From the sequence record MT129654.1: a stretch of 64,000 bases of DNA, one strand, 5' to 3'. The notes beneath the pieces are model-generated. The model was given only the letters and a program-made list of their open reading frames with translations, did no database searches and was not told the DNA's origin. Shown piece by piece: positions 4,467-9,177 of the stretch; within the stretch, counting starts at the first letter, position 1, and the number at the start of each line of letters is the position of its first letter. The stretch comes from Escherichia phage MN04. The position numbers and the translations under genes were made by a program.

Positions 4467-4921
4467 TGAAAACCGAAGATTTTGCTCAAGGTCTATACGT
4501 TGCTGCAAAATTCTCTGAATTGACTTTAGATGCGCTGGAAAATCTTCAGCGCACTTTAAAGGTTCCTAATCCAGTTCCTCGTGAAAAATTCCATTCTACA
4601 ATCTGCTATTCAAGAGTCAACGTTCCATACACCGTTGCATCCGGAAGTTTTGAAGTTGCTTCGTCAGGACATCTTGAAGTGTGGAAACATGGTGATTCTC
4701 CAGTCTTGGTCTTGGTTCTCAATTCAGAGTATCTTAAATGCCGCCATCAGTATGCTCGTACCTTAGGTGCTACGCACGATTTTGATGATTACACCCCTCA
4801 TATCACATTGTCTTATAATGTAGGACCTCTTACCTTTAGTGGAGATGTCCATATTCCTGTCGTTTTAGATAGAGAATATAAAGAACCCTTGAAGCTCGAC
4901 TGGGCCGAGGATTTAAAGTGA
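4466..4921 (+). CDS. 57B: gp57B-like protein (151 aa)
   Basis: ATGA-coupled to 57A; size and position match T4 57B. Confidence 0.55.
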
Positions 4922-5127
4922 AATCATACAAAGAATTTTTAACAGAAGCAATGGAACCCGCCTCTTCGGTGGCAATAGAGGTTTCTTGTACTCCTGAAGA
5001 ATTTAAAGAAAGCCTGAAAGGTATAAATTGGCTTTCGGGAGAGTTATCTAATGGGGTTGCCTACTTCTTCGGCCCTCAATCAGATATAGATAGCTGGGTC
5101 TCTGAAAATTCTTCATGGCTAAAATAA
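4918..5127 (+). CDS. small protein with CTS-like N-terminus [11 protein letters not shown] (69 aa)
   Basis: ORF coupled to 57B; N-terminal motif resembles the T4 internal-protein capsid targeting sequence. Confidence 0.5.
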
Positions 5128-5139
5128 TTTAAAAAAGAT

Positions 5140-5180
5140 GTTTACAAGGTCTATAGACATGATACTATAGACCTATCAAA
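5140..5180 (+). promoter_or_regulatory. T4-type early promoter within a promoter/stem-loop cassette
   Basis: GTTTAC at 5140-5145, -10 region within the inverted repeat ggtctatag/ctatagacc, conserved core gatactatagacctatcaa. Confidence 0.6.
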
Positions 5181-5208
5181 ACAAACCCAACCTAACGGAA
5201 ACAAAAAA

Positions 5209-5502
5209 ATGAAAACTTATCAAGAATTTATCAAAGAATCGACAGATTTGTATTCCATTAACAAAGCGGCTATGGCCGATATTAGTAGCGATATTAAAAG
5301 AGCCTTTGGCTCAGGTGATGTTGATAAGGCTCAGCAAATTACTATTACAGTAAATGGTAAACCTGTTAGTATAGCATTCAATACGGTTAAAAAGAAATAT
5401 TATATTAATCTTGGTGATGATATCCACTTTACAAAATATAAGACTTTTTCCGGTCTTACCAAAGATAAAGTAGTTTCTAAAATCAAAGAAATTACAAAAT
5501 AA
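5209..5502 (+). CDS. internal protein with capsid targeting sequence MKTYQEFIKES (97 aa)
   Basis: N-terminal CTS as in T4 IPI/IPII/IPIII; position next to 57B as for T4 ipI. Confidence 0.65.
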   Translation: MKTYQEFIKESTDLYSINKAAMADISSDIKRAFGSGDVDKAQQITITVNGKPVSIAFNTVKKKYYINLGDDIHFTKYKTFSGLTKDKVVSKIKEITK

Positions 5503-5504
5503 TT

Positions 5505-5548
5505 GTTTACAACGGGCTTTAGTTGATGATACTATAGCCCTATCAAAA
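5505..5548 (+). promoter_or_regulatory. T4-type early promoter cassette
   Basis: GTTTAC 5505-5510 plus conserved gatactatagccctatcaa core. Confidence 0.6.
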
Positions 5549-5571
5549 CAAATGAGTGATTGGAGAATAAA

Positions 5572-5757
5572 ATGAAACGTTGTGAATTAATTAGAAATGT
5601 TACTGCACTGACCGCCGTTACTGCTTTTGGCTTTAGTATGTTTGCAGGATTCATGTTGGATTTGCTTACAACTTCCGAGAATACAATCTCTTTAGTAGTG
5701 GCATTCTTAATTGGTTCAATCTCTTTCGTTATGGATAAAATCTCTAAAGGTGAATAA
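5572..5757 (+). CDS. small membrane protein (61 aa)
   Basis: ATG 5572 with SD ggag; hydrophobic helix; ATGA-coupled to the next gene. Confidence 0.5.
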   Translation: MKRCELIRNVTALTAVTAFGFSMFAGFMLDLLTTSENTISLVVAFLIGSISFVMDKISKGE

Positions 5758-6158
5758 TGAACGTTGAATATTATGTATATGCGGATTACGAAAATAATCC
5801 GTCTAAAGATGAAGATAATCGTTTAGGTGTTGATGCTTTTGAATCCCCTGCAGCAGCATGGCAATGGGTTGAAAGTACTGATATTCCTTACCGTTATATT
5901 GAAGTGGTAGACCATGCAGGAAACAAGTATCCTAAGGAAGCATATGTTCCTTCCGGAAAGGTAAATTTCCTTTTGTTTGCGGGTGATAATTATTATCCAC
6001 GCGGTGGGTATACTGATTTAATCGCTAAAGCCTTCTCTGAAGATGAACTGCACGATATCATTAAAGAAAACGAGAATAAGCCTCTTTACGGTTCTAATCG
6101 TTTTGGTTGGTGGCAGATTGTTAATGCCAATACCCACACTATTGTAGACGAGGGTTAA
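5757..6158 (+). CDS. hypothetical protein (133 aa)
   Basis: ORF, translationally coupled (TAATG). Confidence 0.5.
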   Translation: MNVEYYVYADYENNPSKDEDNRLGVDAFESPAAAWQWVESTDIPYRYIEVVDHAGNKYPKEAYVPSGKVNFLLFAGDNYYPRGGYTDLIAKAFSEDELHDIIKENENKPLYGSNRFGWWQIVNANTHTIVDEG

Positions 6159-6449
6159 ATGTTATACGTTAAGGTTACTAATCCAGAGAATGGCTATAAA
6201 TCCGATCAGGTTGCAGCTGAGTTGTTGATTCGAAATTACGGCAAAGATGCTGTGCTTGATGTTCAACAGGTTAATATTGGCCGTAGTTCAAGCGATGTTA
6301 AACTCAAAGTTAACGGCCATCGCTATAATTCTGTTAACTTTACTTTTTATACTGCAACTGAAAATGGATTGGTCGAATACGACATCTTTAAAAATCCTTT
6401 GAAGATTGCTTCTATTAAACTTGATTATATTAATATGTGGCCACAATGA
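6159..6449 (+). CDS. hypothetical protein (96 aa)
   Basis: ORF immediately after upstream stop. Confidence 0.45.
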   Translation: MLYVKVTNPENGYKSDQVAAELLIRNYGKDAVLDVQQVNIGRSSSDVKLKVNGHRYNSVNFTFYTATENGLVEYDIFKNPLKIASIKLDYINMWPQ

Positions 6450-6922
6450 ATATTAAATTCGGACAAGTTATTCCTAAAGGTTATGCGATTGAAATTGAAA
6501 CCTGGGAAAATGATGGCGATAACTATAAAACCCAGACTATATTTGGCGTAGAAGAACAAGAAATCCAACAGTACAAATATATCCTAGAACTTTTCCATGG
6601 TTCGCATTGCAACAACCCGGATAAATGCGGTAATTCGGAATGGGACGTAGTTAAGCATTTGGTTATTGCTCACATTGAATCCGGTGTAAAATCAGGCCAA
6701 TTGACTCCTGAATTTTTAGATAAAGTCCTCGGTATCCAAGACTTAGAAGCCTTGCTGAACGATGACGAAGAAGAATACTACTTGAATGAAGCCCTTACTG
6801 AGCTCCTTGGTATGGCTTGTGAATATGGTGGCGATTTTATCCGTGCAATTTCTTATGTCAAGCTGTATATCATTGAAGAAGAAATTAAAATCCCTGATGT
6901 GAAAGCACTTGATATGCTTTAA
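6437..6922 (+). CDS. hypothetical acidic protein (161 aa)
   Basis: ORF overlapping upstream gene end. Confidence 0.5.
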   Translation: MATMNIKFGQVIPKGYAIEIETWENDGDNYKTQTIFGVEEQEIQQYKYILELFHGSHCNNPDKCGNSEWDVVKHLVIAHIESGVKSGQLTPEFLDKVLGIQDLEALLNDDEEEYYLNEALTELLGMACEYGGDFIRAISYVKLYIIEEEIKIPDVKALDML

Positions 6923-7860: not shown

Positions 7861-7871
7861 CCCTAGGTTAA

Positions 7872-7900
7872 AGGCCCTTCCGAAAGGTTGGGCCTTTTTT
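7872..7900 (+). terminator. rho-independent terminator
   Basis: Hairpin aggccc-ttccgaaaggtt-gggcct followed by a T-run. Confidence 0.7.
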
Positions 7901-7901
7901 G

Positions 7902-7909
7902 TATAAATA
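7902..7909 (+). promoter_or_regulatory. late promoter TATAAATA
   Basis: Exact TATAAATA right after the terminator, 27 nt upstream of ATG 7936. Confidence 0.55.
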
Positions 7910-7935
7910 TACAGTAAACTAACTTAGGAAATAAT

Positions 7936-8490
7936 ATGAAACTTTTAAAATATTTGAGTTGGATTCTGTTGGTCCCACTAGATTTTATCTCTATGGTTCT
8001 AGCCGTTATCCTTGCGCCTTTTGTGGTTCCTTTCCACAATAAAAAGACTGGTAAATTGCCGTACGGTTTTGATTGGATGATGACATACGATAATCCAATT
8101 GACGGTGACAAAGGTCATATTAAACGTTGGGCTAAAATCAGGAAAATGCCTGGCGGTGTTTATCTCCAGAGGGTAGCTTGGCTATGGCGAAATAAAGCTT
8201 ATAACTTTGCTTACCATAAACTCGGTCGCGATTGTAGCTCAGAATTCCATTATCGTGGTAATCCTGATGTGGAATCAGGTTCTCCTGATAAAGCTCACCA
8301 TGGTTGGTTGTGGATGTGGAATGATGACGCCTGGGGTGTATTTGCTTCAGTTCCTTATCTTAAGGTCGGTGGAATCACATTTTACCTTCGCGTGTACTGT
8401 GGCTGGAAGCTTAAGAGTCTTTTGTCTCGTAAAATCCCTAAAGCTATGTTAGCCTTCCACGTGAACCCGTTCCGGTTCTACAAGAACTGA
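7936..8490 (+). CDS. membrane protein (184 aa, N-terminal transmembrane helix)
   Basis: ORF flanked on both sides by identical terminator plus late-promoter cassettes. Confidence 0.55.
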   Translation: MKLLKYLSWILLVPLDFISMVLAVILAPFVVPFHNKKTGKLPYGFDWMMTYDNPIDGDKGHIKRWAKIRKMPGGVYLQRVAWLWRNKAYNFAYHKLGRDCSSEFHYRGNPDVESGSPDKAHHGWLWMWNDDAWGVFASVPYLKVGGITFYLRVYCGWKLKSLLSRKIPKAMLAFHVNPFRFYKN

Positions 8491-8495
8491 TTTAC

Positions 8496-8522
8496 GGCCC
8501 TTCCGAAAGGTTGGGCCTTTTT
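8496..8522 (+). terminator. rho-independent terminator (second copy of the cassette)
   Basis: Same hairpin ggccc-ttccgaaaggtt-gggcc plus T-run as at 7872. Confidence 0.7.
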
Positions 8523-8523
8523 G

Positions 8524-8531
8524 TATAAATA
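8524..8531 (+). promoter_or_regulatory. late promoter TATAAATA
   Basis: Exact TATAAATA, 28 nt upstream of ATG 8560. Confidence 0.55.
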
Positions 8532-8559
8532 GATAAGTTAATTAACACAGGAAACAATA

Positions 8560-9177
8560 ATGAAAACTTACAATGAATTTTTGAACGAAAGCGTTCTGAC
8601 TGAAGCCAGCGTGCGCATGACTAAAGATATGTGGCAAGCTGCTTATGATAAAATTTCCGGGACTAAAACCACTACCGAGTTCTTTAAAAACGTTTATGAT
8701 ATGTATGGTTTTGATACTAGTAGCCAGAAAGAATATTACAAAGCTTCCAAAGCTTTTAAAGATATCGTAGCCGGTGGCGCTACTAAGCCTGCTAAACCAG
8801 CTAAAGCTCCTGTTTCTAAACCCGTGGCTCAGACCAAAGTTGCAGCACCGAAACCGACACCTAAAGCAGAGCCTGTAAAAGAAGCTCCTAAACCTAAAAT
8901 CAAGTTCGACACCAGCACTATTGTTAAAAAATATAACCAGCTGGCTTCTTTGGTTTCTGAAATCGAATCCGAAACTAAACAACTCGTTCGAGAATTCAAC
9001 GCCCTTCGTAATGGGCAGCACATTAACAACCTGGATACCCCAGACCTCTATCGTCTTTACCTGACGGTTGAAGGCCTTAAGTATACCCAGCCTATGCACG
9101 AAGAAATTGATAACAAACTTCGTCAAGCCCGCCGCCTTGCAGGTGACGCAGCACAGTTCGAAAAGACCCGTAAATAA
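8560..9177 (+). CDS. internal protein, IPIII-like (205 aa, Lys/Ala/Pro-rich, CTS MKTYNEFLNES)
   Basis: CTS N-terminus; basic AKPAKAP repeats; late promoter upstream. Confidence 0.65.
   Translation: MKTYNEFLNESVLTEASVRMTKDMWQAAYDKISGTKTTTEFFKNVYDMYGFDTSSQKEYYKASKAFKDIVAGGATKPAKPAKAPVSKPVAQTKVAAPKPTPKAEPVKEAPKPKIKFDTSTIVKKYNQLASLVSEIESETKQLVREFNALRNGQHINNLDTPDLYRLYLTVEGLKYTQPMHEEIDNKLRQARRLAGDAAQFEKTRK

Follow-up and report, generated by a model that had tools for sequence, protein, structure and literature searches.

Tagged internal-protein genes of the JS98-like Escherichia phage MN04 probably form modular, exchangeable cassettes

How do several genes of one phage come to share a short N-terminal tag while the proteins behind the tag are unrelated? 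This question is raised by a region in the genome of Escherichia phage MN04 (MT129654.1), in which open reading frames (ORFs) beginning at positions 4918, 5209 and 8560 start with a capsid targeting sequence of the type known from the internal proteins of phage T4. The internal proteins of T-even phages are diverse defence-countering proteins that share only this tag (PMC3012670, citing Repoila 1994 EMBO J). We analysed a stretch of 64,000 nucleotides, referred to as the window, on which all features below lie in the plus orientation unless stated otherwise; each tagged gene is named by its start position. Our analysis makes it very probable that these are the T4-type internal-protein genes of a JS98-like phage and that they are organized as modular cassettes which can be exchanged.

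The window contains five tagged ORFs. The three at 4918, 5209 and 8560 have exactly the coordinates and N-termini given by a first-pass annotation of this DNA, and the second cluster that it placed near 17749 consists of two tagged ORFs (17749–18345 and 18406–18705). All five start with M/V-K-(T/S)-Y-x-E-F-(I/L)-x-E, with aromatic residues at positions 4 and 7. The window has five start codons that are followed by this motif, whereas none of 100 first-order Markov simulations contains one. The (L/I)xE motif of the prohead protease is found at residue 10 in all five proteins and is followed by a small residue (LTE/A, IKE/S, LNE/S, ITE/A and ITE/A). In T4, the first 10 residues are enough to direct a protein to the head, with residues 4 and 7 being critical, and the propeptide is cut off by the protease gp21 (PMC9026906); PMC3012670 likewise describes the tag and how it is processed. 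The first-pass annotation had assigned the tag MKTYQEFIAEA to all three T4 internal proteins. This is correct for IPII and IPIII, whereas IPI carries a different propeptide of 19 residues, MKTFKEFTSTTTPVSTITE, and the protein starts with MKTFKEFTSTT.

Cassette 1 (4918–5127) encodes 69 residues. Its GTG start overlaps the stop codon of gene 57B as GTGA, relatives have ATG at this position, and a GAGGA ribosome-binding site lies 7 nucleotides upstream. The predicted mature part is 59 residues long (6.5 kDa) and acidic, with an isoelectric point (pI) of 4.1. The protein matches phrog_23867 (E 2.6e-42), and its mature part is present in 28 phage records, unannotated in JS98, JS10, IME08 and UP19. 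Cassette 2 (5209–5502) encodes 97 residues, in which the propeptide MKTYQEFIKE is followed by S and a basic mature part of 87 residues (9.6 kDa, pI 9.6). This domain belongs to a rare family. Among 50,697 phage records, we found it only in JS98 and JS10 (100%, unannotated), plus three relatives at 32–36% in Edwardsiella phages PEi20 and PEi26 and Yersinia phage MHG19. An exhaustive search of 1.84 billion proteins with the 5209 protein returned only four representatives, two of which are probably spurious: the long repeat proteins P0018 and P0020 were judged to be beta-repeat matches and not homologues. The AlphaFold model of the 5209 protein shows a helix, four strands and a helix, with a predicted local distance difference test (pLDDT) score of 69. 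Both the 4918 and the 5209 ORF match PHROG families over their full length.

We notice that both genes have largely escaped annotation. In the RefSeq entry of JS98 (NC_010105, our locus L001 at 2007–2656), the 650 bp between 57B and trna.4 carry no coding sequence, yet both tagged ORFs are there. The JS10 annotation also omits both, and the 69-residue ORF is uncalled in IME08, UP19, dhabil and dhaeg.

Cassette 3 (8560–9177) lies between rnaC and e.8 and encodes 205 residues starting with MKTYNEFLNES (phrog_2280, E 7e-60). The protein has cleavage motifs at residue 10 (LNE then S) and at residue 15 (LTE then A). F7, E15 and A16 are invariant in the family, and the site at residue 15 is the conserved one; judged from the sequence, the propeptide is probably MKTYNEFLNESVLTE, cleaved before A. 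The mature part would then be a basic protein of 190 residues (21.4 kDa, pI 9.7). In the AlphaFold model (pLDDT 65), a confident helical N-domain (residues 20–72) and a helical C-domain are connected by a linker (~74–113) that is predicted to be disordered, and this linker is the Lys/Ala/Pro-rich stretch to which the first-pass annotation had pointed. The family is found in 130 phage records from several genera, every one of them annotated as 'hypothetical'.

In the second cluster, the gene at 17749–18345, directly 3' of the lysozyme gene e, encodes an IPIII orthologue of 198 residues (mature 20.8 kDa, pI 9.6). It is 86.7% identical to mature T4 IPIII, matches phrog_5341 (E 2e-114) and is syntenic. 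The gene at 18406–18705 occupies the ipII position and encodes 99 residues (mature 9.5 kDa, pI 9.0; phrog_2667, E 5e-43); despite this position, BLASTP revealed no homology to T4 IPII. For comparison, T4 IPI*, IPII* and IPIII* measure 8.0, 9.8 and 20.4 kDa, and all are basic. In cleavage motifs, mature sizes and pI, the tagged proteins of the window resemble them.

The mature parts are mutually unrelated, in agreement with the first-pass annotation. BLASTP among them and the T4 internal proteins gave no pair with E < 0.05, the sole exception being 17749 against T4 IPIII. The 4918, 5209, 8560 and 18406 proteins have no homology to Ip1, Ip2 or Ip3 in BLASTP (E > 0.05) and no fold match at E <= 0.001 beyond their own families. 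Pfam contains no family for any of the tagged proteins. Sequence searches of solved structures with the 4918, 5209 and 8560 proteins gave only chance-level matches, and Foldseek searches with the AlphaFold models of the 8560 and 5209 proteins found no PDB match at E <= 0.001. A viral structure library queried with the 5209 model returned only its own family, and we therefore make no claim of similarity to IPI*.

We compared the region among related phages. The closest relative is Escherichia phage JS98 (Dhakavirus, Tevenvirinae), with 97.9% identity over 4400–9300, and UP19, IME281 and JS10 are 92–97% identical over the same region. With 57B as anchor, 36 related loci were collected; together with the window and T4, ~38 loci entered the count of families. 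Downstream of 57B, the related loci hold zero to three different tagged ORFs, and the mature domains in the ~38 loci fall into at least 23 unrelated BLASTP families. The idea of a diversifying set, put forward in the first-pass annotation, is thus borne out. The comparison of internal-protein loci that it had suggested reveals variable cassettes, and the homology breakpoints between close relatives lie within the tag-coding segment or where it ends.

Superimposing the loci located these breakpoints. Against UP19 and IME281, a homology of 96–98% runs from 3000 to 5231–5238, which is nucleotides 23–30 of the 5209 gene. It resumes at 5496, six nucleotides before the 5209 stop codon and at the beginning of the early-promoter module of trna.4. 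Between these junctions, UP19 and IME281 carry two other cassettes of 74 and 90 residues. In three related loci (L005, L007 and L009) the 69-residue gene (4918) is missing, with junctions at 4917 and 5119. Locus L007 also contains a chimera. It is 99% identical over 8496–8607, a segment containing the terminator, the late promoter, the ribosome-binding site and the 16-codon propeptide, and then continues with the body of a 154-residue family, the family of L005 and L006. Identity is 99–100% through the module and all 48 nucleotides of the propeptide, and the switch falls exactly at the boundary between propeptide and mature part.

The same tendency is seen over all locus pairs, which give 315 distinct right-hand homology ends. 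These events are not phylogenetically independent; 23 of them lie at +15 to +60 of tagged gene starts, an enrichment of ~6.5-fold (1.1% of the sequence expected), 19 more lie at 0 to +14, and none at +61 to +200. Many other junctions are located at promoter or terminator modules and at gene boundaries, namely at 4917, 5119, 5496, 7903–7957, 8500–8522 and 9225.

The first-pass annotation had described the first ~23 nucleotides of the genes as nearly identical and had suggested that this would allow exchange. Within this genome the description is overstated. Pairwise identity of the five genes ranges from 17 to 23 of 23 positions, an exact run of 23 nucleotides is common to 5209 and 18406 only, and 4918 shares just exact runs of 8–9 nucleotides with the others. 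We simulated codon choice from the phage's own usage with the peptides fixed. Summed over all pairs, the identity in codons 2–11 is 226, compared with an expected 214.5 ± 6.5 (P ~0.05), and the near-identity within the genome is therefore essentially a by-product of the conserved peptide. Selection on the DNA identity itself was considered and rejected on the same grounds. On the other hand, synonymous choice is more uniform in the tag when 66 distinct 5' ends of related loci are compared with codons 2–10 of other genes: K2 is AAA in 98% versus 76%, E6 is GAA in 97% versus 88%, and F7 is TTT in 83% versus 68%. This hints at shared descent or conversion, and it is suggestive only, since the 66 sequences are not independent.

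At a single locus, alternative cassettes have an exact gene start of 23–25 nucleotides in common, and this start is contiguous with the regulatory module. The shared 5' block of module and tag is ~90–115 nucleotides long, has 88–91% identity and ends 23–48 nucleotides into the gene. Efficient homologous recombination in T4 needs roughly 50 bp. The block of module plus tag is a more realistic recombination substrate than 23 nucleotides alone. Exchange through the 5' ends is consistent with the junctions in relatives, whereas the short start taken by itself is not the substrate.

Two kinds of regulatory module flank the cassettes. The early-promoter module GTTTACA-N13-TGATACTATAGACCTATCAA has 11 copies on the plus strand, including those upstream of 5209, trna.4, e.8 and 17749. 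One stem-loop copy at 5136–5190 (GTTTACA-N13-TGATACTAT inside a hairpin; -15.8 kcal/mol, z -5.4; repeat family D1) forms the 5' boundary of cassette 2. A second one at 5501–5556 (hairpin z -4.3), the promoter of trna.4, forms the 3' boundary. A promoter stem-loop is also found at 20192–20250 (z -3.6), and the promoter at 9233–9288 has no stem-loop (z 0.07). Replacement or insertion junctions at 5119–5132, 5496 and 9225 coincide with promoter modules.

The other kind combines a terminator hairpin with the late promoter TATAAATA. Copy 1 (7868–7909, with TATAAATA at 7902), identified as repeat D4 and by its fold, lies upstream of a DUF7338 gene (7936–8490) and at a breakpoint cluster (7903–7957). 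Copy 2 (8491–8531) is the 5' module of cassette 3, with TATAAATA 29 nucleotides upstream of 8560, and this module together with the first 25 nucleotides of the 8560 gene is common to the alternative cassettes of related phages. The DUF7338 gene is flanked by the two copies; in L005 and L007 the tagged gene stands before the DUF7338 gene, an order swapped relative to the window. In the second cluster, a plus-strand TATAAATA at 17146 precedes e, the gene in front of 17749. The expression signals of the first two cassettes are the coupling to 57B for 4918 and the early promoter for 5209.

The sequences thus show that a cassette comprises a 5' regulatory module, the tag, an unrelated mature domain and then the regulatory module of the next gene. 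The 5' module is of three types: an early promoter in a stem-loop, a terminator with a late promoter, or translational coupling to 57B. Very probably, recombination in the 5' block and in the 3' module replaces, adds, deletes or moves mature domains among the 57B/trna.4, rnaC/e.8 and e/denV intervals.

The distribution of the families illustrates such movement. The 4918 and 5209 genes occupy the interval from 57B to trna.4, which is the ipI locus of T4, and 17749 and 18406 follow e. The 8560 gene lies outside the known ip loci, in a third locus between rnaC and e.8, where T4 has nothing. In relatives, the number of tagged genes at this third locus ranges from zero to two; they belong to at least three families (205, 154 and 187 residues), and each stands behind a late promoter. 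Seven other phages have the family of 18406 at their ipI locus (46–52% identity, full length). The PEi20 relative of the 5209 domain is tagged (MKTYNEFINEA) and is located after e in the ipII position. The relative in MHG19 is a neighbour of motA and has an early promoter in front of it; if translation is taken to begin at an ATG with a GGAG ribosome-binding site, the protein is untagged and starts with MNPLYKAV. In the MHG19 record (OQ331036, our locus L042 at 1453–1752), the protein WCZ66291 is annotated from a TTG, and the ATG with GGAG is found 40 nucleotides downstream; the annotated TTG start is probably wrong.

The 5209-type domain therefore appears, from its sequence contexts, to be deployed either by injection or by early expression, and the existence of both forms argues for a cytoplasmic rather than a structural role. 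Since the domain occurs with and without the tag, the tag can be regarded as a separable module. We tentatively suggest that it acts as a portable 'injection adaptor', attached to or removed from cytoplasmic effector domains, and that the third polymorphic locus, driven by late promoters, carries families annotated only as 'hypothetical'. We consider this quite possible, without calling it probable.

Because searches with the 4918, 5209 and 8560 proteins gave no function, the mechanism is modeled on T4. By this analogy, the first 10 residues, MK(T/S)YxEF(I/L)xE, would bind the scaffold core while the prohead is being assembled. The protease gp21 would then cut after the Glu of (L/I)xE, at residue 10 and in the 8560 protein probably at residue 15. 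The mature proteins of 6.5–21 kDa would stay in the head with the DNA and would be injected along with it, and in the cell they would most likely block first-line defences. JS98 encodes gp67, gp68, the gp21 protease and the gp22 scaffold, whose genes lie outside the 64-kb window; a literature search found no virion proteome of a Dhakavirus.

Known targets of the T4 proteins indicate which defences may be concerned. GmrSD-type enzymes attack modified cytosine DNA, and each of the T4 proteins Ip1, Ip2 and Ip3 inhibits a different GmrSD enzyme of the type IV restriction class (PMC12373910). Infection of ECOR17 depends on IPIII (PMC9391042). Internal proteins of related phages have been recognised by their signal sequence, and tests of ip4–10 with other GmrSD variants produced no reproducible hits (PMC12373910). 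The window encodes a homologue of the gp42-like hydroxymethylase, so that modified-cytosine DNA is likely and type IV enzymes are plausible opponents. The 17749 protein probably shares the target of IPIII, and the other tagged proteins are candidates only.

Several observations weigh against reading these genes as exchangeable cassettes of injected proteins. We infer the packaging, the cleavage and the anti-defence role of the 4918, 5209 and 8560 proteins from T4, and the first-cluster proteins have no sequence or fold similarity to Ip1, Ip2, solved structures or known anti-defence proteins. The 4918 gene has a GTG start and an acidic mature part, unlike the classical basic internal proteins. 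Neither 4918 nor 5209 has a late promoter of its own, the nearest plus-strand TATAAATA being at 1484, and a late supply of their proteins to proheads therefore has to be assumed. The similarity among the paralogous 5' ends of this genome does not go beyond what the peptide demands. Moreover, the identity to UP19 drops from 98% to 85–88% from ~5157 onwards, before the start of 5209, and some crossovers thus probably took place in the promoter module and not in the tag. The last two points also suit another explanation, in which the tag is kept only for its binding to the prohead core, the flanking modules drive the turnover, and the tag DNA is a passenger and not a crossover site. The many breakpoints at modules and gene boundaries listed above agree with it, as do the promoter stem-loops at 5136–5190 and 5501–5556, which are of the kind that mediates shuffling in RB49 and phi1 (PMC2839356). 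However, the L007 chimera keeps its identity through the module and the whole propeptide and switches exactly behind them, alternative cassettes at one locus have their exact tag starts in common contiguous with the module, the homology ends fall at +15 to +60 and not at +61 to +200, and the synonymous codons of the tag vary less than those at the starts of other genes. We regard a passenger role of the tag DNA as possible, though rather doubtful.

The question of function has alternatives as well. Some of the proteins, above all the basic 8560 protein, might be structural or DNA-condensing components of the head core instead of anti-defence effectors. This would fit with the wide occurrence of the 8560 family, usually in the same position with its own late promoter, with a mature size and pI that match IPIII, with a Lys/Ala/Pro linker reminiscent of a histone tail, and with the slower head assembly of T4 IPIII mutants (PMC9026906). 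We nevertheless find it unlikely: the 8560 locus is polymorphic, and close relatives either lack the gene or have other families in its place, T4 IPIII, the model 'structural' internal protein, inhibits a GmrSD enzyme (PMC12373910), and the T4 internal proteins are dispensable on laboratory hosts (PMC9026906). It is far less probable still that one or more ORFs remain unexpressed or unpackaged, in which case their tag-like starts would be relics; 4918, with its GTG start, and 5209 would be the main suspects. The two genes are unannotated in JS98, JS10 and IME08, and the start codon of 4918 and the lack of own late promoters point the same way. Yet both ORFs are intact and are 98–100% conserved as protein in relatives that differ by ~2–4% in DNA, and both match their PHROG families in full length. 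In addition, 4918 has its GAGGA site and overlaps 57B just as the alleles with an ATG start do, and 5209 has a strong early-promoter module. Our findings support the reading of T4-type internal-protein genes in exchangeable cassettes, and every computationally testable part of the first-pass interpretation is supported.

Comparison with known systems places this arrangement within its family. The likeness to the T4 internal proteins includes the N-terminal tag with Y/F at position 4, F at position 7 and (L/I)xE, the small, mostly basic and unrelated mature domains, and the location next to 57B and downstream of e, where 17749 is a true IPIII orthologue (87%). In contrast to T4, the first-cluster domains of the window are unlike Ip1–3 and one of them is acidic, the ipII position holds another family, and 8560 sits in a third locus, rnaC/e.8, which is empty in T4. 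The polymorphic ipI locus of T-even phages (Repoila 1994, cited in PMC3012670 and PMC12373910) likewise varies in the number, order and identity of genes between conserved flanks, and only the tag is kept. To this our analysis adds mapped breakpoints in Dhakavirus, a third locus, and families in different loci, one of them untagged.

In RB49 and phi1, sigma-70-like early promoters in stem-loops (PeSL cassettes) mediate modular shuffling, and PeSL-like sequences have been reported in JS98 (Arbiol 2010, PMC2839356). As in those phages, strong early-promoter stem-loops flank small non-essential ORFs in hyperplastic regions of the window and coincide with junctions. The module sequence of the window differs, and the repeat at the third locus is a terminator with a late promoter. 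The Dar proteins of phage P1 are also anti-restriction proteins that are packaged in the head and enter the host together with the DNA, but they are unrelated, follow a different packaging hierarchy and have no short cleavable N-terminal tag of the T4 type.

The first-pass reading is therefore right but not new, since polymorphic tagged ip loci and their arms race with restriction systems are already established (PMC3012670, PMC9026906, PMC12373910). The arrangement is ordinary for this phage family, and the accepted picture of the system is unchanged. Modestly new are the unannotated 4918 and 5209 genes, the recognition of the 205-residue family as tagged, the third polymorphic locus, the mapped junctions including the chimera, and the untagged relative of 5209.

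The gene order in plus orientation follows T4, with 3, 1, 57A, 57B, the ipI locus, trna.4, trna.3, trna.2, the tRNA genes and rnaD/rnaC, and it continues after rnaC from e.8 through e.1/nudE to e, ipIII and ipII. Gene 57B (4466–4921), the conserved left anchor of the ipI locus by synteny with T4 and JS98, belongs to the family of the Acb1 nuclease (Pfam PF23474, E 1.3e-58), which acts against the cyclic-oligonucleotide-based anti-phage signalling system (CBASS). By this assignment, an anti-defence gene lies beside the first internal-protein slot; it abuts this slot and is translationally coupled to it. A functional partnership between 4918 and Acb1 was considered on account of the overlap. In many related loci, however, a tagged ORF begins exactly at the 57B stop codon, and because many unrelated cassettes occupy this overlapping slot, the coupling looks positional.

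An Rfam scan of 4300–9700 detected three tRNAs and nothing else. We notice homologues of the T4 stable RNAs rnaD (7558–7677) and rnaC (7684–7822), with 91% identity overall and ~99% over rnaC; these homologues at 7558–7822 matched no Rfam family. The rnaC segment, exactly 7681–7824, is absent from JS98, UP19 and IME281. Further along the window, five small ORFs of 65–96 residues lie in tandem at 11621–12867. They are paralogues with an invariant C-terminal W-x-x-S-S-x-x-C ending, and none of the five matched a Pfam family. At 27618–28403, a 251-residue ORF with an Sf6-type tail-needle-knob domain (Pfam PF16532, E 5e-32) is encoded on the minus strand, with a minus-strand late promoter TATAAATA just upstream at 28396–28403, in surroundings that are otherwise on the plus strand. 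Within 51235–54549, a 567-residue ORF with a nucleotidyl-transferase domain is located between the DNA polymerase gene and the homologue of the gp42-like hydroxymethylase (53851–54549), and it may be linked to sugar modification of the DNA.

With its injected internal proteins, a phage makes its first response to restriction; the GmrSD enzymes are very diverse, and in T4 each internal protein disarms one subtype of them. Phages of the JS98 type have been used in phage-therapy work, and the identity of their injected effectors therefore bears on host range. The three uncharacterised tagged proteins of the first cluster, two of which are missing from the JS98 reference annotation, are candidates for anti-defence screens, and the mapped junctions make the turnover of such an arsenal concrete. 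If the tag is indeed a portable adaptor, the pool of injected effectors would be larger than the view of 'two Ip loci' implies, and it would be fed by the capture of early genes.

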